From: an uncultured Methanosarcinales archaeon
GTDB taxonomy: Archaea > Nanobdellota > Nanobdellia > Woesearchaeales > DSVV01
DNA: 64,000 nucleotides
Assembly: GCA_964390375.1 (NCBI GenBank)
Contig: CAYMIF010000002.1
Span: 4,191-68,190, forward strand
Direction of reading: 5' to 3'
Part shown: positions 4,113 to 59,467 of the stretch, piece after piece
Layout: every line of letters starts with the position of its first letter
Numbering within the stretch: position 1 is the first letter of the stretch
Position numbers and translations under genes: made by a program
The notes under the pieces: model-generated
What the model was told of the DNA's origin: nothing
The model's input: the letters and a program-made list of their open reading frames with translations, nothing else
Database searches by the model: none

Positions 4113-4751
4113 ATGATTATTAATTATCATTCTATTCTTCAGAATATGATAAAAGCAGTGATTTTCGATTTCGGCGGAGTAGTGATAAGAGACACGCATC
4201 AGGAAGTCAAGGACTATATTGCAGATAATCTAGGACTAAAAAGATCAGTTGTCGAAGAGATAATAGAAATGACACTTCCATTATATCGCACAGGAAGGTT
4301 AAGCACTGAACAATACTGGAAAATATTCTCACAGCTTGCAGGAATATCTTTTCCCAGAGACTACAAACACCTATGGAGAGGCGGATATGAATCAGAAGAC
4401 AAACAGAATCTTCCGCTACTGGATCTGGTCCAAAGACTGAGAAACAATGGCTATATCACGCCTGTTCTTTCAAACACAATCCTTCCCCATGCAGACTTCA
4501 ATCGGTCTTCACATAATTATGATCTCTTCGAACCAGTTATCCTCTCATTCGAGGTCGGGATGGCAAAGCCCGACAAGAGAATATATGAGTTAATGTTAGA
4601 CAGGATTAATATGAGTGCAGATGAATGTGTCTTCATAGACAACACAAAGGAGAATGTTGATGCAGCGATAGATTCTGGATATCATGGGATAATATACAGA
4701 GGAATTGACCTTTTGCTCCAGAAATTGCAACGGCTTGGTGTTAAATTATAA
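4113..4751 (+). CDS. HAD-superfamily hydrolase (subfamily IA-like phosphatase)
   Basis: Motif I at AVIFDFGGVV (DxG), which may be the true start at 4146, and a C-terminal FIDN/D motif-IV-like region. Confidence 0.7.
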   Translation: MIINYHSILQNMIKAVIFDFGGVVIRDTHQEVKDYIADNLGLKRSVVEEIIEMTLPLYRTGRLSTEQYWKIFSQLAGISFPRDYKHLWRGGYESEDKQNLPLLDLVQRLRNNGYITPVLSNTILPHADFNRSSHNYDLFEPVILSFEVGMAKPDKRIYELMLDRINMSADECVFIDNTKENVDAAIDSGYHGIIYRGIDLLLQKLQRLGVKL

Positions 4752-4807
4752 AAGAAAAGTCAAAAAAGATCTCCCTTCAGCCTGATAAATAATTACTGGA
4801 AAAAAAA

Positions 4808-5302
4808 TCAGTTCACGCAGGATCTAAGTCCACTCATCTCGATTGCTTTATCCTTGCATTCCTTCTCTTCTTCTCCGACCATGATTATCGGGGTGAATTT
4901 CATCTTCTGAGGCTCGCCGTATTCTTCTACATCATAATCTATAGAAACAAGTTCTTCAGATTCCGGATCAATTGTGTCGTCCAGCTCCAAGTTCTTGAGG
5001 TTTGCCGAACCAGTGATCTCTGCTCGAAGGCCTAAAATCTCTGCCTTGCCTGAATTATTGAAATTCAGGAATATCTTGTCTTGGTTGTAGCATGTCGGCA
5101 TCTCATCGATTATTCTCAGGCTCACTGCCTCGCATTCCTCTGGTTGTCCGAAGAAACCGATCTCGAAGATATACATAAACAGCAGCAGTCCGACAATTAG
5201 TGTGATCAGAAGCTTAGCAAGCTTCAGCCCGAATTTCGCGAGCTTAAAGAACACTGCCAGCCCGATTATAACGATAGCCGCGATGATTATCTTGTCCATC
5301 AT
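4808..5302 (-). CDS. small membrane protein, hypothetical (two predicted N-terminal TM helices, extracytoplasmic C-terminal domain)
   Basis: Hydrophobic N-terminus (IIIAAIVIIGLAVFFKLAKFGL...LLITLIVGLLLFMYIF) and no recognisable family. Confidence 0.4.
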   Translation of the reverse strand: MMDKIIIAAIVIIGLAVFFKLAKFGLKLAKLLITLIVGLLLFMYIFEIGFFGQPEECEAVSLRIIDEMPTCYNQDKIFLNFNNSGKAEILGLRAEITGSANLKNLELDDTIDPESEELVSIDYDVEEYGEPQKMKFTPIIMVGEEEKECKDKAIEMSGLRSCVN

Positions 5303-5339
5303 TCTGGATAAGGGTTTGCACGGTTGGATATATAAAGTT

Positions 5340-5480
5340 TTGCATTGTTTTGGCTAATATGAAATCCTATGCGTCTGTGCCACGAGAGAGAATATTTATG
5401 AAATAAATATTCTCGGGGCCAGGCGAAGTTTTTACGCAGTAAAAACGTAGTAGTATAGGATTTCATATTAGCCCATTGTT
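5340..5480. repeat. structured palindromic intergenic element, copy A (long outer stem GGCTAATATGAAATCCTAT/ATAGGATTTCATATTAGCC enclosing two internal hairpins); possible small ncRNA or MITE-like repeat
   Basis: Nested inverted repeats are readable directly. A second copy with the same outer stem and first hairpin sits at 36413..36538. Confidence 0.55.
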
Positions 5481-5522
5481 TTTGGTTTTCCGAAAACCTT
5501 TTTTTAGAAAAAAGGAGCTTTC

Positions 5523-6887
5523 TTACTGTTCCCGCAGGTATCCCCAGGTATGCAGCTTGTCGCTGTCGCTGTACCATCTCTCTCCTATGTCATCGCGGTA
5601 GTACATGTGCGGTATGGATATCTGCCCTATCCTGTGGTATGCCTGCTTTCGGGCCTCCTGCATCGTGTGCCCGCATCCGCAGACGACCAAAACGACCCCG
5701 GATGAACCTGTAACCAGCCATTCGTTGTTGACCATCTTGACATCCTCAATATGCACGCCGTCTACAGGCTTTTTGAAGAATATTATAGAGTCCTTTGATT
5801 TAACATCAAAGGTCTCAGGATCATTGAAAGGGAACGGCGGGACCACGATTCTCACGCCTACCTGAAATCCAGACCTGGCCTTTAGGTTCGGCTTCTTGCC
5901 TTGCGCAAGCTCATACAAAAAATCGCCTATAGGCACAAGCATCCCCTCCTCCTGGATGAACAGGCAGGGATATCCGAACCTGCTGGTAAATTCCAGAGGG
6001 TATATCCCTTTATGGTTTACGATGCAGTTCAGGTCTATGTATCCGATATAGCCTTCCGAAGCAAGCTTCTGCTCCATCTTCTTGAGTGTCGCGTTGAATA
6101 TCCTGTTCGGCCCTGACCAAAACATCGATGTCCCCATCTCGCCGGTGGATGGTCCAAGGTTCCCGGGAAATAGTTTCTTGTGCTCGAAATTGACGTTTAT
6201 AGGATAAAGGAACTCATGGCCGTTGAAGAATGCTCCGACAGCGATCTCGACGCCAAATATCCTCTTCTGCAGCTGGAATGCAGGGATCTTCTTTGACCAG
6301 GCTTTTTTGTAATCTGCGAGCACCTGCATAACGTCCCGCCCGTCGTTCTCCTCGCCGATGAACAGCAGTCCTTTGAGGTTTGCTGCCTCGCCGCACGGTT
6401 TTAGCACGTACTTGCCAGGATTCTCCTTGACAAATGCGATAGCCTCGTCAAAATCATGGAATGTCCTGGAAGGAAGTATGTTGATTCCGGATTTTCGAAG
6501 CTCTTCCTGCCCAAAATCCCGATCATCCTCAAGGAGGTCTGTATATGGTGTCCCTCCGACGACTAGTTTACCTCTATTTCGAAGATCCTGCGCAAGCTTT
6601 CCTTGGCCGAGGACATCATCAAATACGATAACATCTGCCCATTCTTCCCATTTCTTCCACTCATCGACGATCTCAAAGAAACCTGAGCCAGTCTCTTTCA
6701 GTTTTTCATTTTTCACATAATACCTGACATCATGCCCTTCTTTTTTTATTCTCCATGCTATGTCTGCGATAAGGCTGTCGATAGTGATGAAAAGAAAGTT
6801 CTTCGGATTCTCAGTTTTCCGTGTCTTTTGGCTGTCACGGCCGTTGCTGCTTTTGGTTTCAGCACCGTTTCTGTTCGGATTTTCCAC
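5523..6887 (-). CDS. ATP-grasp protein, phosphoribosylamine-glycine ligase (PurD)-like; start codon uncertain (likely GTG at 6887, since the ATG-defined ORF to 7013 overlaps the upstream methyltransferase by ~110 nt)
   Basis: PurD-like motifs (GPSTGEMGTS, N-terminal Rossmann-like FLFITIDSLIADIAWRIKKEGHDV). The K-rich 5' extension has no internal ATG. Confidence 0.55.
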   Translation of the reverse strand: MENPNRNGAETKSSNGRDSQKTRKTENPKNFLFITIDSLIADIAWRIKKEGHDVRYYVKNEKLKETGSGFFEIVDEWKKWEEWADVIVFDDVLGQGKLAQDLRNRGKLVVGGTPYTDLLEDDRDFGQEELRKSGINILPSRTFHDFDEAIAFVKENPGKYVLKPCGEAANLKGLLFIGEENDGRDVMQVLADYKKAWSKKIPAFQLQKRIFGVEIAVGAFFNGHEFLYPINVNFEHKKLFPGNLGPSTGEMGTSMFWSGPNRIFNATLKKMEQKLASEGYIGYIDLNCIVNHKGIYPLEFTSRFGYPCLFIQEEGMLVPIGDFLYELAQGKKPNLKARSGFQVGVRIVVPPFPFNDPETFDVKSKDSIIFFKKPVDGVHIEDVKMVNNEWLVTGSSGVVLVVCGCGHTMQEARKQAYHRIGQISIPHMYYRDDIGERWYSDSDKLHTWGYLREQ

Positions 6888-6903: not shown

Positions 6904-7710
6904 TCATCTTTTGTTTTTAATTCTTTTGTTTTTACGAGCTTCTTTGTCCTGTTTATTCTTTTTTGCCCGGATATACCAGTCCCACATCTCCGGATTGCCT
7001 TCAAAATCCTCAAAATCTCCGGTCTCCTCTCCCCAGGGATACCTGACCTTGTCTATTTTAATATCACAGAATCCTGCGCGCGAAAGCTCCTGGATGATTT
7101 CGAACCTGTAGAAGAATTTTTGCCTTTCTGAGCAGTCATCATAAACACCGGTCACATAATTGTATTTTCTCTCTTCCACCCTCCGCCTCATGTTCCTCAA
7201 TGCGGTTTTTTTCTTTTCTGACTGCTTCAGCTCCTGTTCCAGGACAAGCTTGTGGTTGTAGATAACAGATTCCATCGAGGGGAATATTCCGATGAGCTGC
7301 CCGCAGGGATTTATAGTCTTGTATATCTCACCAAGAGCTTTCCTCACGTCAGCTGTCTTAGAATGCAGGACTGAATTTATCGCAAAGACCATATCAAACC
7401 TCATCCCTGTGCTGCTCAGCGTTCTCATGTCAGCTCTCTTAAAGATTATATTCCCAGGATCAGCATTATTTTTCTTAGCCAGAGATATCATTTTGTCAGA
7501 GAAATCAAAAGCATGCACTTTTTTGAAATTTGATGACAGGACAGGCAATAGATCGCCCGGACCGCATCCGACATCAGCGCAGACCATTTTTTTCCTGCCT
7601 TTTATTTTTTTGATATCATCAAAAATTGGATTCTGCACATTCTTCTGCAGCGGGCTTATGATGTAACTGTGATAGTCATCAGAATACCAGTCCCATTCAG
7701 CCTTTTCCAT
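6904..7710 (-). CDS. class I SAM-dependent methyltransferase with lysine-rich C-terminal tail
   Basis: Motif I VCADVGCGPGDL, a post-I acidic residue (FDFSD) and a motif-II-like FDMVFAIN. Confidence 0.7.
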   Translation of the reverse strand: MEKAEWDWYSDDYHSYIISPLQKNVQNPIFDDIKKIKGRKKMVCADVGCGPGDLLPVLSSNFKKVHAFDFSDKMISLAKKNNADPGNIIFKRADMRTLSSTGMRFDMVFAINSVLHSKTADVRKALGEIYKTINPCGQLIGIFPSMESVIYNHKLVLEQELKQSEKKKTALRNMRRRVEERKYNYVTGVYDDCSERQKFFYRFEIIQELSRAGFCDIKIDKVRYPWGEETGDFEDFEGNPEMWDWYIRAKKNKQDKEARKNKRIKNKR

Positions 7711-8589: not shown

Positions 8590-11442
8590 CTATTGTTGTT
8601 CTATCTTTCTGACAACACCCTGGTTTCCGTCTATCTCTATCAGTTCTCCGTCCTTGATGTTTTTGGTTCCTGACTTGACTCCGACCACACAAGGTATCCC
8701 TGCCTCTCTGGCAAGTATTGCCGGATGCGCGGTGATTCCAGTCCCACCATCGCATACCACTCCTGCTGCATTCTCAAGAGCCGGTGCAAAAGACGGAACG
8801 ATCTGGGTGGTCACGATGATCTCTCCTTTTTTGACCCGTAATGATTCATCAGGATTCATGATGACTCTTGCCTTCCCTCTTGCTTTTCCTGATGATACTC
8901 CGAAGCCTTTCAGTTCTTTTTTCTCTTCCTTCTGCTCGACCAGCCGGTCATAGAGGAGTTCAGCCTCTTCGCCTGAGATGACTTCTGTCTCTTCGTCTCT
9001 GACAATATATGCGGATAATCTCATCCGTTCAGCAAGTTCGTTTTTGAGTTCATTGTTTCCTTTTGCATCAAGTATTCTCCCGATCTCCTCGGTTTTCAGG
9101 AACCTTACGTGGTTCACAGAGACCTTGGCTCTCCTTGCTGTCTCTTCCAGTACAGAATCGAAATAGAACAGGCTGATGGAAACATACTTTTTCCTCAGCT
9201 CTTTTAGGTATATGCCGTCCCTGAGTGCAGCAAATTCTCTTGAGATCTCCTTCCCAAGTGTTTTTCCGATATCCTCAAAATCTTTCTTGATCCTCTCATT
9301 CTCGTCCAGTCTGCTCTTCAGCTCTTTTTCAAATCCCACAGTCAGGATATCTCTTGTCCGTTGCACAAAATCATGATAACCAAGCACCGGGTCTTCATAG
9401 TCTCTTGTGATCCAGAAATATCTCTTGCAATGGTTAATGAACATAGCATCAAGCTCCTGGTCGCTCTTGATTTTCTTTACGGTTGTCTTCAGGTCATCCT
9501 CATCAAAAAATCTCTTCCATTTCTTCTTCTCAGATATCTTCTTTGCAAGCTTCAGCGCATCCAGCCTCTCGGTTCCATTGACCTTGGCCCTCGGTTCGTT
9601 GATCAGGGCAGAGAAAAGTTCTTCAGGATCTCTTTTGCTGAGCTCATCTGGCTTGGCATATTCTATTTTCTTTTCCAGCGCATTTTTCAGGTGTCCTACC
9701 AGTTTATGCTCGCAGCTTAGTATGGCAAAATAGTGCGAATAGATCTCCTTGTATCTTTGCTTGTACTCAGAAAAGACCTCTTTTAGCTCGCGAGAATCAA
9801 GCTTTCTGGCGCGCTTGCTGACATCCTCTATCCATGAGATGAACTCATCCCCCCTCTTCTTCACCTCTTTGCTCATCCTCGCAAAAAGTCCAGGATCATC
9901 GATGACTAAAGAGAAGACATGCTCTGCCACTTCCTCCTGGTCTTCTGAGTCGAAGAACCAGTTCGCGATCCTGTCGCGGAATATGATCATGGCAAAACTA
10001 TAGCCTTTTTTGACTACCTTTTCCATCTCTTTCATGATGCTTTCCATCGAGAAATAGTTCGGGAAAGGCGTCACCCTCTGCCTGGTTGACTTGTGTTCAA
10101 GGATTCTTTTCCTCACAGTCCCTTCCTTTGTCTCGATCCAGTCTCCTGTTTTGATGATTCTCGTTCCTTTGTCTGTTCCGACTATGCATGGCTTCTTCAT
10201 CTCCCTCGCGACAATCGCGGCATGGCAGAGGAGCCCGCCGTCATCAGTGATGAACGCTTTTGCCTTGTTCATGGCCGGCAGGAACTCAGGATTCGTCATC
10301 GGCGTGACAAGGATCTCTCCCTTTGAAAAGTTCTCGAAGTCTCGGGGATTGTTGACCACTCTTGCTATCCCGAAAAAATCCTGCTTCACTGAAGCTTGTT
10401 TCCCGCTCAGTTCCTTTTCATCTTCCTCGTCTGCTCTTTCCTTCTTCAGCTCTTCAGAATATATGTCTTCAGTGTCAAGAATTATCACGCCTGAATTATA
10501 CCAGAGCAGATGGTCCTTTCTTCTTCTTTCCAGCTCTTTTCCGGAGACTGTGCATCTGCCAATCTTTAGGGATTCCAGTAATTCGCAGTACCTCATGTTG
10601 CAGACATCTTCGTATTCTACTTTGAGTCTTTTCCCTATCCCCTGCCACATAGGCTGCAGGGTCTCGATCGCAAGGTTCACGGTCTCGTCTGCCTTGTTCG
10701 GAAAATCGCCGAATTCCCTGCAGGCATCGATCATCTTCTCATATTGTTCTGGTACTTTCAGCTTCAGCACTTTATCGGGTCTGCCTGCTTTCTCTTCAGC
10801 CTTCAGGTTCTTCTTCATCTCCTTTAGGTCTTCAGGGGTCAGCCCTTTTCCCCAGAAATAGTATCTGCCGAGGTGGCTGAACTTCTCGCTGAGTTTCTTT
10901 AGGTCATGTCCAGAATATAGATCGTCCACAAGCTCTGCCATCTCTGTCTTATGTTTCGGGCTTATGTACCTCAGAAGGTCATCTTTCTGATATCCTATAT
11001 CTTCCAGCTCTTCGACGATCTTAGGGATTATGTGCTCATCGATTATCACATAGCTGTATATGATGGGCCCTGCCCAGAACTTAGCTGCAAGTGAGCGAAA
11101 ATCCGTTATCAGTCCAGGCCAGTTGCTCTCCTTCTTCCATGGTCTTTTCGATTGCCATTCAAGGACAGTCTTTCGGAATTCTTTGATGAATCCTATTGCA
11201 GTGTTTGCTAGGTCATGGGCTTTCTGCGGGTCATTATGCATCCATTCATCGAGTGTTCCTTTGAGCATTTCATAGTCTTTAGCAGACAGCTCCCTTTTAT
11301 TTGCGAACTGGCGGTAATGCTTAAATGTCATGTCGATGCCATAATGCTTCTTGACTATTCTTTCCTTCATCGCCCACATAGGTATCTCTATTATCAGTAC
11401 CGCATGGTTGCGTCCTCTCCTGGTCAGGTTTCTCCATTCCAT
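8590..11442 (-). CDS. PEP-utilizing-enzyme family protein with two phosphohistidine 'mobile/swivel' domains (PpsA-like C-terminal modules), each preceded by a helical domain
   Basis: Two swivel-domain signatures are present: GGLLCHAAIVAREMKKPCIVG (aa ~410) and GGTGITAHPAILAREAGIPCVVG (C-terminus). No ATP-grasp signature was recognised. Confidence 0.6.
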   Translation of the reverse strand: MEWRNLTRRGRNHAVLIIEIPMWAMKERIVKKHYGIDMTFKHYRQFANKRELSAKDYEMLKGTLDEWMHNDPQKAHDLANTAIGFIKEFRKTVLEWQSKRPWKKESNWPGLITDFRSLAAKFWAGPIIYSYVIIDEHIIPKIVEELEDIGYQKDDLLRYISPKHKTEMAELVDDLYSGHDLKKLSEKFSHLGRYYFWGKGLTPEDLKEMKKNLKAEEKAGRPDKVLKLKVPEQYEKMIDACREFGDFPNKADETVNLAIETLQPMWQGIGKRLKVEYEDVCNMRYCELLESLKIGRCTVSGKELERRRKDHLLWYNSGVIILDTEDIYSEELKKERADEEDEKELSGKQASVKQDFFGIARVVNNPRDFENFSKGEILVTPMTNPEFLPAMNKAKAFITDDGGLLCHAAIVAREMKKPCIVGTDKGTRIIKTGDWIETKEGTVRKRILEHKSTRQRVTPFPNYFSMESIMKEMEKVVKKGYSFAMIIFRDRIANWFFDSEDQEEVAEHVFSLVIDDPGLFARMSKEVKKRGDEFISWIEDVSKRARKLDSRELKEVFSEYKQRYKEIYSHYFAILSCEHKLVGHLKNALEKKIEYAKPDELSKRDPEELFSALINEPRAKVNGTERLDALKLAKKISEKKKWKRFFDEDDLKTTVKKIKSDQELDAMFINHCKRYFWITRDYEDPVLGYHDFVQRTRDILTVGFEKELKSRLDENERIKKDFEDIGKTLGKEISREFAALRDGIYLKELRKKYVSISLFYFDSVLEETARRAKVSVNHVRFLKTEEIGRILDAKGNNELKNELAERMRLSAYIVRDEETEVISGEEAELLYDRLVEQKEEKKELKGFGVSSGKARGKARVIMNPDESLRVKKGEIIVTTQIVPSFAPALENAAGVVCDGGTGITAHPAILAREAGIPCVVGVKSGTKNIKDGELIEIDGNQGVVRKIEQQ

Positions 11443-13622: not shown

Positions 13623-13751
13623 AGATTGTCACCTCGATGAAAAATACTTTATGAATGATATTATCAATAAGTAGTAAAAGATAGCTATTAATATCTAACT
13701 GATATTATTAATATTAATAATATTAAAAACAGAAATACGGACTCGCCCAGT

Positions 13752-35247: not shown

Positions 35248-35781
35248 TCAATCCAGGATTAATCTTATTTTTTGAATAAATTTTCTTGCATTATCGAATA
35301 TCTCTTCGACCTGCCTTTCAGTGTATCTTTTTATTGCAGAGTATCTTGCAGCATGGCTCTCGACTCTTGCGTCTTCGAAATATTTGACATATTCATCTTC
35401 GAATATCTTATAAGACTGATTGAGCAGTTCTAGGTCTTCCTTTTCCATCTCATTTGGGACCAGAAGATGTCCTAGTGCAATTTGAGCAGCCATATGGTCT
35501 TTTACCTCATAGCCTTTTGAAAGGATTGCAGCTTTTGCACTATAGAGCATTGAATAATATGATATTGTGATAGCCCAATAATTCCAATGAAGTTTTGTCG
35601 GTTCATCGATTCTTGGCTCGATTTCTTTATGGTGGTTGGCTATCATCAGGCTGTTTTCTGCTTTATCAATAAAAAGCTTGATTTTGAAACTGTTCGAAGA
35701 TCGGACAATCCTTTTTTCATCTAGATATTCTTCAAATCTTTTTTGATATTCCTCTTTGTTATATTGCATCGAGTACCACAT
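35248..35781 (-). CDS. HEPN-domain protein (toxin-like partner of adjacent nucleotidyltransferase)
   Basis: ~177 aa helical protein that overlaps the upstream MNT-like gene by 23 nt. The HEPN assignment rests on the pairing and an R..H-like segment (RVESHAARY). Confidence 0.45.
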   Translation of the reverse strand: MWYSMQYNKEEYQKRFEEYLDEKRIVRSSNSFKIKLFIDKAENSLMIANHHKEIEPRIDEPTKLHWNYWAITISYYSMLYSAKAAILSKGYEVKDHMAAQIALGHLLVPNEMEKEDLELLNQSYKIFEDEYVKYFEDARVESHAARYSAIKRYTERQVEEIFDNARKFIQKIRLILD

Positions 35782-36331
35782 TCCAGAAATGGTTTGGATT
35801 ATTTAAGACTATATGGTTCCTCAATGCCTGTTTTCCGACATTCTCTTCATTATCTTTTATCATCTCTTGAAACTCAGGGATCTTTAAGAAAACAGGATTG
35901 ATCTGCTTGTCAAAGATTAACTCGTATTTTGAGAAGGATATCGTCTTATTGCCGGATTTATTGATTATCATAAGATCAATATCGCTTTTTTTTCCTTCTT
36001 CTCCTTTTGCGTAGCTTCCAAATAAGAGTACAATATCTTCTACCCTTAAATCCTTTGATATCTCTCTTATCATTGGATTTCTTTCTAAAAAAGATCTCTT
36101 TTCTTCTTCTGATGAAATTGCAAGGTATGACTGGATTACTGGATTTTGTAGATTAAGTTTTAGTGTCTTGGCTTTTCCTATTTCCTTGATTGCCAGAAGC
36201 TCTTTCATCTTATTTATTGTCCTGTAAAATGAAGCATAAGGAATATGGAGTTTCTTTGAAAGCTCGTGCATAGTAAATTCTTTGTCAAACTCTTTTCCAA
36301 GATGGTTTATGATCATCAATCTATTATCCAT
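35759..36331 (-). CDS. nucleotidyltransferase-domain protein (MNT-like, with N-terminal wHTH)
   Basis: Minimal NTase motif LLFGSYAKGEEGKKSDIDLMII and an N-terminal HTH-like segment. Confidence 0.7.
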   Translation of the reverse strand: MDNRLMIINHLGKEFDKEFTMHELSKKLHIPYASFYRTINKMKELLAIKEIGKAKTLKLNLQNPVIQSYLAISSEEEKRSFLERNPMIREISKDLRVEDIVLLFGSYAKGEEGKKSDIDLMIINKSGNKTISFSKYELIFDKQINPVFLKIPEFQEMIKDNEENVGKQALRNHIVLNNPNHFWNVVLDAI

Positions 36332-36392
36332 ATTTGGATAATGTTATTCATAATTGATATATAAATGTTATGGTCTTCACCTGTTTTTAGAT

Positions 36393-36600
36393 TCTGGACG
36401 TCTGTGCCAGGAGGGCTATTATGAAATCCTAGCCGTCTGTGCCATGAGAGAGAATATTTACAATAGTAAATATTCTCGTGGCCAGGCGGAACCGATGTGA
36501 AACATCGGTGAAGTAGGATAGGATTTCATAATAGCCCATGGCCAGGCAAAACCTATATGTACCAGGGCTGGACTATTATAGGATTTAATAATGGCAGGAA
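36393..36600. repeat. structured palindromic intergenic element, copy B, with flanking partial duplications of its arms
   Basis: 36413..36538 aligns to 5352..5474 (TATGAAATCCTA..GTCTGTGCCA.GAGAGAGAATATTTA..TAAATATTCTC.GGCCAGGCG..[hairpin]..ATAGGATTTCATA.TAGCCC). The second internal hairpin differs in sequence but still pairs (CCGATGtgaaaCATCGG versus GTTTTTAcgcagTAAAAAC). Confidence 0.55.
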
Positions 36601-45534: not shown

Positions 45535-47549
45535 ATGATCTCCTCATATATCTTTTTGGTCTCTTCAGAAGTCTGATCAAACGAGAATCCGTAAGCAGCT
45601 GACCTACATTCCCTTTCTGCCTGGTCTTTAGGAATTTGAAGTACCTCCAGGATTGCAGATGAAAATGCTGCAACATCAGGTTTGACGATCCTGCCGCAGT
45701 ACTTGTTCCTGACAAACTCTCGAACCCTGCCGACAGGTACAGTCACAACAGGCGTTCCGCAGGCCATGGCCTCCTGCACAACAAGAGGTCCTGACTCATA
45801 CTCGCTGAAAAGCACGACTGCATCTGCCATGTTATACAGATCGACCAGATTTTCCCTGCTCTGTGAACCTAGATAATAAATTCCCTCACTATGCGCAAGA
45901 TTATCCTTCTCAGCCCCTTCGCCAGCGATTAGCAGTTTCAGTCCTTTCTCTTTTTCTTTTGCAAGCTGGAAAGCTTCGATGATCCTGTCTACGTTCTTGT
46001 CTTTCCTGAGTCTTCCGCAATACAGCAGGATCTTGTCCTTTTTGCTTATTTTTATTTTGTGCTTATCAGTTATCGTCTTGTGATCGATGTTCTTTGGTTT
46101 GAACGTCTCAGTATCTACGCCTATATGTATCACTCTTGCCTTGTCTTTTAATGCCGGATACCTCTTGAGGTATCTCTTCTTGATATCATCAGACACGAAT
46201 ATCACGCGCCTGGCTCTGGAAAGTACCATTCGCTCGATGATTGAATACACCCATCCCACGACCTTTCCCTTCTTGCGCTTGATTGCTGTTCTATCATCGC
46301 CGTGTATTGTCACGACTAGTTTTTTTGAGAATATGAACCTAAGCGCGTAGAGTACGTTTTGGGCAGCTATTATGCCTTCTGGCTTTGAAGAAAACAGGCT
46401 CAGAAAATATCTCATACTTGAGCGGCAGTCTCCTGGCACTATGTTTATTTTCATATGTTTTTTCAGATCAAGTATATAGCTTGACGTGCCTCCGAGATTA
46501 TTCTTGCCCTCTTTTGTATGATAGACGATATTTATCCGCTCTTCTTTCCTGGTCGCAAGCTCGATCATGAAACTTGTCAGATCGATTTTGTCCTCGAAAA
46601 GCTTTTTCCTGCGCTTTTCCCATGTAGCCTGGGCATCCTTGTCGGTCACAAGCGCCAGAGCCTTCGCAAGCGCTTTTTTAGGGTCTTTTATAGAGAACAT
46701 AAGCTTGTATTTTCTTTCAAGCTCATCGAAGTTGCTCATCTGTCCGACAAACTCATTGCACCTGACAACAGGCACTCCCAGGCACGCACCCTCCGTTGCC
46801 ATGGTCTGCGAGTCGCCGACATAAAGCTTTGCTCCTTTCATGACAGAGTGCATTTTCTCAGGAGCAAGCTTCAGCCTGAATCTCTCAAGTTCCTTTGGCA
46901 TCTCTGCCTCAGAGGTGATATAGACATGAGCGTGTTTTGCCAGTTCCTTTGCGAACTTGATTTTCCACTCCAGGCTGAATCCTCCTTTGCCAGCATCATG
47001 CTGTGCAGCAAAGTTCACGAACCTCATGACAACATATGGCTTTTTAAGTCCTTTGATCTTATCTTCGTAGAACCATTTCGGATGCAGGTATGAAAGTTCC
47101 TTGAATCCGTTATACCGCACATGTTTCTTTCCGAGGTCGATAGAGAATCCTTTAGGTGTGACTATTTGGTTTGCGAATGGTTTCATGAGCCTAAACTGCC
47201 AGATCATAAGATCAGTGTCTTCGAATATTATTGACTTGACACCCAAAAGCCATGCTACCTGTGCGATATAGCAGTTGCCTGACGCCCCAATCATCAAATC
47301 CGGTTTGAATCGCTTCGCGATCTTGATGATTTTCCAGTCGATTGCGAACATTCCGATGGCTTTCTTTATCCCAGAGTACCCTTTTCCTCTTTTCTCATAG
47401 GGCAGGCTGTAAGCATCCAGAAGCTTTATCGCGACATCTTTGTCCCGCGCAGAGAAAAGCACAGCATGCCCGTTCTTCATCATCTCTTTTGCGAAATTCT
47501 TGAATAAGTGCACGTGCGCAGGATGCCCTATATCTATTAGTATTCTCAT
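45531..47549 (-). CDS. fusion protein: N-terminal DUF354 (epimerase/GT28-like Rossmann domain) + C-terminal GT4 glycosyltransferase
   Basis: The N-terminus MRILIDIGHPAHVHLFKN is characteristic of DUF354. The C-terminal half carries LFSEYESGPLVVQEAMACGTPVVTVPVG. Confidence 0.6.
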   Translation of the reverse strand: MRILIDIGHPAHVHLFKNFAKEMMKNGHAVLFSARDKDVAIKLLDAYSLPYEKRGKGYSGIKKAIGMFAIDWKIIKIAKRFKPDLMIGASGNCYIAQVAWLLGVKSIIFEDTDLMIWQFRLMKPFANQIVTPKGFSIDLGKKHVRYNGFKELSYLHPKWFYEDKIKGLKKPYVVMRFVNFAAQHDAGKGGFSLEWKIKFAKELAKHAHVYITSEAEMPKELERFRLKLAPEKMHSVMKGAKLYVGDSQTMATEGACLGVPVVRCNEFVGQMSNFDELERKYKLMFSIKDPKKALAKALALVTDKDAQATWEKRRKKLFEDKIDLTSFMIELATRKEERINIVYHTKEGKNNLGGTSSYILDLKKHMKINIVPGDCRSSMRYFLSLFSSKPEGIIAAQNVLYALRFIFSKKLVVTIHGDDRTAIKRKKGKVVGWVYSIIERMVLSRARRVIFVSDDIKKRYLKRYPALKDKARVIHIGVDTETFKPKNIDHKTITDKHKIKISKKDKILLYCGRLRKDKNVDRIIEAFQLAKEKEKGLKLLIAGEGAEKDNLAHSEGIYYLGSQSRENLVDLYNMADAVVLFSEYESGPLVVQEAMACGTPVVTVPVGRVREFVRNKYCGRIVKPDVAAFSSAILEVLQIPKDQAERECRSAAYGFSFDQTSEETKKIYEEII

Positions 47550-47793
47550 TCTAATATTTACCTTTTTTTAGTGGGACTAAGTGAACGAAGTGAACGCATG
47601 TCGCACATCGCTTACAATTGGCGAAAGAATTGTGCACGTGCGCAGGATGCCCTATATCTATTAGTATTCTCATTCTAAGATTTACCCTTTTTTAGTGGGA
47701 CTAAGTGAACGCATGTCGCACATCGCTTACAATTGGCGAAAGAATTGTGCACGTGCGCAGGATGCCCTATGTCTATTAGTATTCTCATCCTAA
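47508..47793. repeat. tandem direct repeat, ~2.4 copies of a 115-124 bp unit, each containing the start codon and first 14 codons (MRILIDIGHPAHVH) of the DUF354-GT4 gene plus ~75 bp of its upstream region
   Basis: Copy boundaries are 47508, 47632 and 47747. Copy 1 carries an internal 9-bp duplication (aagtgaacg). Copy 3 is truncated and has a single mismatch (tatgtct vs tatatct). Confidence 0.85.
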
Positions 47794-47839
47794 AATTCCA
47801 CCTTCTATGAGTCTCCTCATTCTCAGATCTCACCTTGAT

Positions 47840-58578: not shown

Positions 58579-58666
58579 GCCCCGAGCATTGATTCACAGC
58601 TATTTAAATCTTTCGTTTTAATATGATTAATATTAATGATATCAGTTAAATATTAATTAAGGTATT

Positions 58667-59467
58667 TTGTCACTGCCAGATAATAAAATGACTCTCACTA
58701 TGGATATAATCGGGACCTGCAATGAGAGCTGTGAGTTCTGCTATCAGGACAATGACGGAACAACGCTCTCCGAAGAAGAGGTGATAGGGATAGCTGATGC
58801 CAACCCAGATCTTGATGTTGTTGAGATTGGAGGAGGCGAGCCATTTCTTCATGATGGCCTGGCCAGAATAGTATCGGTTCTATTAGGAACGGGAAGAAAG
58901 GTTCATCTATCTACAAACTGCACAATGATATCTGAAGAATTGGTTGATTCAGTCTCAGGACTTAATGATGGTCTTGAGCTGCAGGTGAGTCTCCATGCTG
59001 CTGATCCGAAAACCTATCAGGATATTACTGGAAAGGATTATTTCGATCTTGTCATGCATAACCTGGCAAAACTAAGTTCAGCTTTCAGGACATCTATCTC
59101 TACTACTGTCTACCAGAGAAATTATTGCTCAGTAGAAGGTGTGATAGACATAGCAAGTGGACTTGGACTCCCGGTGAGGGTCCTGCCTGTGCTGCCGATC
59201 GGAAAAGGGGCCGCGGTAAGGCTGCTTGAGCCTGCACAGTTGGACAAGTTGAGGGGGATGCTTCTCGCAGAGTCCCTTCAGAGGGGTATTGTTGTTGATT
59301 CCCCTTTGATTCACAGGAACAACTGCCAGGCATTGGAGGACGCATATGGAATACCCAAGCAAGCCCGGTGTCCTTTGGATTTAGGACAAAAAGTTTACTA
59401 TTCGCCCAGAGGCGAGCGATACTCATGCGAATTCTGCAGATACGATGTTTTAGGTGAAAGAAGATGA
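58667..59467 (+). CDS. small radical SAM enzyme with C-terminal Cys-rich auxiliary (SPASM/twitch-like) segment
   Basis: GTCNESCEFC (CxxxCxxC), a GGGEP SAM-binding motif, and C-terminal CQALED...ARCPLD...YSCEFCRY. Confidence 0.7.
   Translation: MSLPDNKMTLTMDIIGTCNESCEFCYQDNDGTTLSEEEVIGIADANPDLDVVEIGGGEPFLHDGLARIVSVLLGTGRKVHLSTNCTMISEELVDSVSGLNDGLELQVSLHAADPKTYQDITGKDYFDLVMHNLAKLSSAFRTSISTTVYQRNYCSVEGVIDIASGLGLPVRVLPVLPIGKGAAVRLLEPAQLDKLRGMLLAESLQRGIVVDSPLIHRNNCQALEDAYGIPKQARCPLDLGQKVYYSPRGERYSCEFCRYDVLGERR

Follow-up and report, generated by a model that had tools for sequence, protein, structure and literature searches.

A palindromic repeat of an uncultured archaeon, very probably an IS5-like MITE, lies at a fixed distance from core promoters

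A palindromic element of about 125 nucleotides occurs twice in the 64-kb stretch of archaeal DNA analysed here (the window) and raised the question whether it is a functional RNA or a mobile element, the two readings named in the original prediction. Both copies were found where they had been placed: copy A, of 122 bp, at 5352..5473 and copy B, of 123 bp, at 36414..36536 (36413-36537 if one extra G-C pair is counted), no strand being assigned to either. The copies are complete, 77% identical over their whole length, and share a 26-nt core (GTCTGTGCCANGAGAGAGAATATTTA), which is present in these two places of the window and had no match in 100 shuffled windows. Together with one decayed copy they make up the census of the element in the 64 kb. 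They contain no genuine open reading frame, just spurious overlapping ones, and assemblies break within both of them, as expected of repeats. The window comes most likely from a DPANN-type archaeon, because its aIF5B is 59-63% identical to the best named matches, all of them from Woesearchaeota or Nanoarchaeota. Another repetitive region of the window, at 47461-47804, consists of three direct repeats of ~105 nt (spaced 115-124 nt, 64-93% identity), for which Tandem Repeats Finder made no call and which are probably a repeated protein segment.

In both copies a long terminal stem surrounds a conserved stem, a distal hairpin and a second hairpin. The predicted fold of copy A has -59.1 kcal/mol (z = -9.3 relative to shuffled sequences) and that of copy B with its flanks -86.9 kcal/mol (z = -14.4). 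The ends of the window-type element read GGCTAATATGAAATCCTA. A 19-bp outer stem had been described as common to the two copies. It is perfect in A, where the terminal inverted repeats (TIRs) GGCTAATATGAAATCCTAT (5352..5370, plus strand) and ATAGGATTTCATATTAGCC (5455..5473, plus strand) are 100% complementary over 19 bp, but the letters of the copy B stem (GGCTATTATGAAATCCTA / TAGGATTTCATAATAGCC; TIRs at 36414-36431 / 36519-36536) differ from those of A, and the inverted repeats of B comprise 22 bp with 95% complementarity. The inner stem of A, CGTCTGTGCCA / GGCCAGGCG (plus strand, 5372-5382 / 5417-5425, block 5372..5425), encloses hairpin 1, which consists of GAGAGAGAATATTTA, a loop and TAAATATTCTC (plus strand, 5384-5398 and 5404-5414); the inner stem of B is located at 36434-36444 / 36480-36488. 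Hairpin 2 is GTTTTTAcgcagTAAAAAC in copy A (5428..5446, plus strand, GTTTTTA cgcag TAAAAAC) and CCGATGtgaaaCATCGG in copy B (36492-36508). As originally observed, the two sequences are wholly different and each is a perfect palindrome.

Looking for target-site duplications had been recommended as a way to recognize a miniature transposable element with inverted repeats (MITE). Copy A is flanked by an exact duplication of 9 bp, CATTGTTTT, at 5343..5351 on the left and at 5474..5482 on the right (9/9 match, compared with 1-2/9 in shifted controls). This duplication was overlooked in the original prediction, as were the inner stem and degenerate end around copy B and the TATA box 15 nt from copy A, both described below. 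Among MITEs and full-length insertion sequences (IS) of the family, the duplication was exact in 15/27 cases and matched in 8/9 positions in five more, the maximum in comparisons shifted by 10-30 nt being 5/9. Two relatives from metagenomes (L073 and L075) have 8/9 duplications. In a set of short metagenome IS contigs (L076, L078, L081, L106-L111, L116, L117, L120 and L121) the left and right 9-mers differ, and the same flank is seen with different partners. Such mismatched and re-paired flanks result from chimeric assembly across a multi-copy IS, thus duplications read from single contigs of this type are not trustworthy.

The left-TIR 18 nt of copy A also form the terminus of many elements in metagenome-assembled genomes (MAGs) and of a 1023-bp IS (L060, 5119-6141), which has the same TIR as copy A, is bordered by the duplication CTTAATTTA and carries a single ORF of 318 aa. 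The encoded protein matched DDE_Tnp_1 (Pfam PF01609) with E = 1.4e-8 and 35.2 bits against a cut-off of 23. Among NCBIfam models transpos_IS5_2 was by far the best-scoring family, with 133.7 bits, which is below the cut-off of 140. The nearest annotated relatives are haloarchaeal and Methanomethylovorans proteins named "IS5 family transposase", with 28-29% identity. At E <= 1e-10 the transposase had 586 homologs, nearly all of 305-306 aa and mostly encoded on ~1-kb contigs, as is characteristic of an IS that is present in many copies and assembles by itself. Full IS copies with matching ends, 9-bp duplications and a DDE transposase (L079, L086, L118 and L119) are 1018-1022 bp long; IS copies of this size fall into three lineages, whose ends show small variations and whose 9-bp duplications are exact. 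In one MAG the exact window TIR motif was present at seven contig ends, and L050, the one contig among these to extend far enough, continues after the motif into the beginning of a homologous ORF. The left ends of the IS contain, about 25-40 nt in and ahead of the transposase ORF, a (T)AGAATATTTA-like motif. Sibling family F1 is clearly derived from the left end of the IS, and the arms of hairpin 1 (GAGAATATTTA) resemble this subterminal motif, hinting that part of the interior of the window element is IS-derived as well. No homolog of the transposase was found in the 64-kb window, indicating that the window copies are non-autonomous.

Very probably, therefore, we are dealing with a MITE from an IS5-like family, whose TIRs are the ends used by the DDE transposase of the ~1.02-kb IS. 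A much simpler account, that an immobile intergenic palindrome was copied by segmental duplication, could appeal to the fact that the window holds two full copies only. We consider it practically negligible: the flanks of A and B are unrelated, the 9-bp duplication at A is precise, and the same ends are found in other genomes on dozens of elements and on a transposase-encoding IS.

The distribution of the ends was surveyed by an exact scan for the 18-nt end motif GGCTAWTATGAAATCCTA with one genome per species, which yielded at least 52 loci. Among the matches listed, 40 were in archaeal MAGs labelled Woesearchaeota, Nanoarchaeota or "uncultured Methanosarcinales", many of them at contig ends, and 12 were bacterial solo matches that look like chance. 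The window-type interior was absent among the at least 52 loci listed. When few mismatches were allowed, the end motif occurred as inverted pairs 120-290 nt apart at most of the archaeal loci. About 22 sibling mini-elements were recognized in archaeal MAGs; they have common ends and several unrelated interiors, and most possess 9-bp duplications of their own. On viral contigs the end motif had 12 solo matches inside coding sequence, none of which was paired or had a TATA box, and the 19 viral matches to the inner-stem pattern with variable gap were all due to chance.

Many of the sibling MITEs have a conserved central module, GCGTTCCC-GTA-GGGAGC..CCCCTCGCGACG. It is carried by L024 (7243-7406), L025 (3530-3693), L034 (6480-6645), L033 (4567-4730), L055 (2974-3137), L058 (223-385), L051 (3677-3841), L059 and L065, and with extra inserts by L030, L037, L047 and L067. 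The subfamily arms flanking the module co-vary (e.g. GCTACTATC/GATAGTAGC, GCAAGCATC/GATGCTTGC and GGTCACTAAC/GTTAGTGACC), some siblings have additional palindromes in their loops, and a central-module sibling gave no Rfam match. At four loci of MAG CAZXTQ (L022 at ~1240-1278, L041 at ~7420-7457 and the flanks of L044 and L040) a second repeat, cactttatgYRGCnGACTTATTACATAC, adjoins the MITE end. This repeat may terminate a different mobile element, which would suggest nested insertions. IS and MITE ends are common to CAZXTQ, CAZKVI, CAYIZT, CAZDUE and CAZNUS, which are labelled Methanosarcinales, and to JAUUYB, JBBAAQ, JACOZR, JBKHAC and JAZDID, which are labelled Woesearchaeota or Nanoarchaeota; either the elements cross from one group to the other, DPANN archaea and methanogens, or some of the MAGs are mislabelled or misbinned.

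Relatives of the window-type interior came from a metagenome scan with the end/inner-stem junction, which found three loci only (L073, L074 and L075). All three retain the inner half of the end (GAAATCCTA / TAGGATTTC), the stem CGTCTGTGCCA / GGCCAGRCG and the motif AGTAG.A before the 3' arm, whereas the outer halves of their ends have the variant GGCwTTGTAG... and both hairpins are unrelated palindromes of other lengths. Across A, B, L073, L074 and L075 the inner-stem sequence thus does not vary, whereas the hairpin that it encloses does; at the position of hairpin 2, copy B, L073 and L075 have palindromes unrelated to that of copy A. The second hairpin had been called compensatory. The change is the swap of a whole palindromic module within a conserved foldback scaffold, not point covariation of paired bases, and the three metagenome relatives behave alike. 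The assumption that a MITE would show no structural conservation did not hold either, since the scaffold is kept across relatives in which both hairpins have changed. The persistence of the inner stem and the AGTAG motif, while the hairpins and the outer halves of the TIRs differ, is not predicted by a purely parasitic model.

This conservation is also an argument for the RNA half of the original prediction, according to which the element would be the gene of a structured small RNA: a three-way junction closed by GAAAUCCUA/UAGGAUUUC, with the repeat ends serving as terminal helix and the changes in the hairpins compensated. Besides the scaffold preserved in five relatives with differing hairpins, several details fit an RNA. 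By inspection, the conserved stem has one U-A to U-G change, and L073 differs from L075 at the foot of hairpin 2 by two double changes and one G-U pair. The plus strand of the window copies folds better, and in the window-type family it has an excess of G-U pairs of 11 to 4, a weak bias derived from four sequences. Furthermore, if the neighbouring TATA box fired inward, transcription would start near end position 9-10, where conservation across subfamilies begins. Against these stand the exact 9-bp duplications and the autonomous IS with identical ends. The strand bias is absent from the larger sibling families, where G-U pairs number 44 vs 44 in F1 and 58 vs 64 in F2-4, and the hairpins are perfect Watson-Crick palindromes. 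Between sibling subfamilies 9/36 predicted pairs showed double changes, but a DNA palindrome would yield the same. Elements occur in both orientations, and the promoter fires away from the element, its BRE being located between element and TATA box. Rfam searches gave no match in the whole window at the gathering score and none in the relatives; with copy A, a sibling MITE and a metagenome relative, relaxing the threshold to E = 10 returned sub-threshold generic hairpin models at most. We therefore regard an RNA gene as very improbable, and of the two readings originally offered the mobile element is the one that stood.

No tRNA or tmRNA was detected in the window. Motifs of bulge-helix-bulge stems, box C/D RNAs, retron RNA and group II intron fragments were absent from the sequence, and a leaderless mini-ORF starting from the ATG in the end motif was discarded because in copy B it stops after three codons.

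Copy B differs from copy A in its surroundings. No target-site duplication was found for it: the flanking 9-mers TGCCAGGAG and CATGGCCAG match in 2/9 positions, and alternative end positions gave none either. On the left, the segment 36379..36413 contains a very degenerate left end (~36379/36381-36399, about 10/19-21 matches), a second GTCTGTGCCA (36400-36409) and GGAG. On the right, the segment 36537..36595 contains CAT, GGCCAGGCA (36540-36548) and a degenerate right end, TAGGATTTAATAATGGC (36579-36595, 14/18 matches). The extra inner stem and the degenerate ends indicate that copy B occupies the hairpin-1 position of an older, decayed copy. A clean cut-and-paste event does not explain this nesting; copy B may have arisen by a second insertion, or by a rearrangement, inside the older copy. 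Downstream of copy B and its decayed host there is a nucleotidyltransferase/HEPN gene pair (35248-36331). A marine copy of the IS (L076, 277-1342) likewise adjoins a Polbeta/HEPN pair, and the similarity of the two neighbourhoods may be a coincidence or may reflect a favoured site.

A common arrangement was recognized in the DNA flanking the elements. Reading outward from the element, and on one side only, the 9-bp duplication is followed by an A-rich, BRE-like hexamer (consensus AWAAnn) and by TTTAWATA, a one-sided layout present at nearly every element or IS. To quantify it, octamers matching TTTAWATA in at least 7/8 positions were scored at offsets 0 to 44 from 88 non-redundant ends. The octamer started at offset 15 in 29/88 ends and at offset 17 in 13, other offsets being represented 0-3 times each. 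Altogether 42/88 ends had it at offsets 13-17, which is about one end per element, and in 35 of these 42 an outward ORF started within 10-150 nt. Several of these ORFs have their ATG about 22 nt past the TATA box, the distance expected for leaderless archaeal mRNAs. The layout was missing from the chance matches to the end motif, both bacterial (0/12) and viral (0/12). In two further IS lineages, for which the layout had been predicted beforehand, the octamer was at offset 15 in 8/20 distinct flanks and at none of the neighbouring offsets, and intact insertions had the TATA box on a single side. As the BRE-like hexamer lies between the element and the TATA box, the promoters fire away from the element. 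When orientations and flanks of F1 members were inspected, the promoter-proximal end was the left one in four cases and the right one in five, which suggests that in this family the orientation of the element relative to the promoter is random.

Both window loci conform to this arrangement. Next to copy A, the minus-strand promoter at 5329..5342 abuts the duplication and consists of CAAAAC (5342-5337) and TTTATATA (5336-5329); the TATA box is at offset 15 from the left end, and the ATG of the gene 4808-5302 is 26 nt beyond the promoter. The decayed copy is accompanied on the minus strand by ATAACA (36371-36366) and TTTATATA (36365-36358), a promoter (36358..36371) located upstream of the nucleotidyltransferase gene 35759-36316/36331 and 13-15 nt from the inferred old left end. 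The right flank of copy B reads CATGGCCAG GCAAAA CCTATATG, the last being a weak (5/8) TATA look-alike at the same offset, within the old copy. L073 and L075 have the promoter spacing, too. The element-to-TATA distance is thus equal in two window loci, at about 40 MITE ends from MAGs and metagenomes, and in three IS lineages. Selection alone would not be expected to fix the spacing to the nucleotide when spare intergenic DNA is available (about 50 nt beyond copy A), and the simplest reading, which we think likely, is that the fixed distance reflects targeted integration just upstream of the BRE.

A position next to a promoter could also mean that the MITE has been co-opted by the host in cis, as an insulator or terminator between genes of the same strand, or as an upstream module modifying the promoter. 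The element borders directly on the BRE of the downstream gene, and the TATA-like motif AGAATATTTA from the left end of the IS recurs on both strands of hairpin 1. Moreover, copy A was found at the orthologous site of a second genome (L090, ~90% nucleotide identity), where it is identical in 122/122 positions and the promoter is fully conserved as well. However, the copy in L090 sits in a block of ~500 nt with 99-100% identity, which reaches into both neighbouring genes and is not the only one of its kind: between 4146 and 15303 of the window, the comparison with L090 gave a mosaic in which blocks of 99-100% identity (e.g. 5203-5702 and 8702-9001) alternate with blocks of 68-90%, with a break near 4700-4800 where identity is 44%. 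This mosaic suggests frequent recombination between lineages, and recombination explains the conservation of copy A. Since the fixed offset is also seen with full-length IS, it points to integration and not to selection for a function of the MITE. On this evidence co-option is unlikely. No empty site was obtained for copy A, the single ortholog recovered (L090) being filled, nor for copy B, whose locus was recovered from the same sample only. L090 has also kept an AT-rich intergenic stretch with about 45 well-matching nucleotides (ATTAATATYTAACTGATATYATTAATATTAATMATATTAAAA), which occurs in the window at 13659-13728 and, inverted, at 58616-58685 and is not a tRNA.

Targeted integration could proceed as follows. 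Transposase supplied in trans would bind both ends of the element, cut the target with a 9-bp stagger and integrate the element, the site being chosen through the BRE/TATA sequence or through a promoter bent by bound TBP/TFB. In the more specific version, which we put forward tentatively and hold to be possible rather than probable, the transposase recognizes the bound, bent BRE/TATA and integrates exactly 6 bp, the width of one BRE, upstream of the TATA box. It is equally possible that, in a weaker variant, the transposase reads the BRE/TATA sequence directly. A one-sided signal combined with random orientation of the element fits a symmetric transposition complex acting on an asymmetric target. 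Guided by promoters, the element would land in a harmless gap between the terminator of one gene and the next core promoter. The foldback could act at the DNA level, as a palindromic scaffold made of the conserved stem and two exchangeable hairpins; it may help to join the two ends, or it may persist through intrastrand template switching.

For annotation, the repeat should be masked as mobile DNA rather than entered as an RNA gene, and taken alone it is a routine MITE. What gives it interest is the spacing shared across loci and lineages, according to which the insertion site is likely to be chosen relative to the archaeal core promoter. Confirmation would make this one of the rare examples of promoter-directed DNA transposition in Archaea. 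The insertions would then mark real promoters within the genomes of uncultured DPANN archaea, and a transposase docking beside BRE/TATA could serve as a handle for studying or engineering archaeal transcription units. Tethering by TBP/TFB, if true, would represent the archaeal DNA-transposon counterpart of the Ty3-TFIIIB system and a safe-haven strategy in compact DPANN genomes. Each such insertion parts the promoter from the DNA upstream of the BRE and could rewire regulation.

MITEs as a kind of element are already known, and the family appears to be undescribed. The full-text literature consulted, whose coverage was incomplete and which included PMC10969869 and PMC13343696 among reviews on MITEs and IS, contained no description of the family or of promoter-adjacent targeting by an archaeal IS. 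Archaeal MITEs are listed for Sulfolobus, Halobacterium, Haloquadratum and Desulfurococcus, and Correia elements are described as lying upstream of genes and carrying promoters (PMC10969869). The present element resembles prokaryotic MITEs such as the Correia elements of Neisseria, SM1-SM4 of Sulfolobus and those of Haloquadratum and Halobacterium in being short, non-coding and intergenic, in having TIRs, target-site duplications and a strong foldback, and in depending on an IS transposase acting in trans. It differs from them in its DPANN-type hosts, its ~1.02-kb parent of the IS5 family, the several interiors found with one pair of ends, and the fixed position relative to BRE/TATA. To our knowledge, no fixed offset from the host core promoter is known for Correia elements.

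Within IS5, elements of the IS903 group (ISfinder) produce 9-bp duplications and have ends starting with GGC. The parent of the present family is a candidate member of this group, which it resembles in its length of about 1 kb, its single DDE_Tnp_1 transposase of ~305 aa, its GGC ends and its 9-bp duplication; on the other side, its nearest annotated relatives are only 28-29% identical and its IS5_2 score falls just below the cut-off. The target preference of IS903 is a symmetric pattern around the duplication, whereas the signal of this family is one-sided. Parallels to the choice of site come from elements directed to promoters. In yeast, TFIIIB directs the retroelement Ty3, and two constituents of TFIIIB, TBP and a TFIIB-like factor, are homologous to the TBP and TFB of archaea. 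IS5 inserts upstream of the E. coli promoters glpFK, bgl and flhDC. In contrast to Ty3, the archaeal element moves as a DNA transposon (cut-or-copy), its insertions lie upstream of the BRE and not at the start site, and its tethering protein is hypothetical. Like Ty3, other promoter-tethered retroelements and IS5 in E. coli, it takes a defined place beside a core promoter, which offers a safe haven where the genome is compact.
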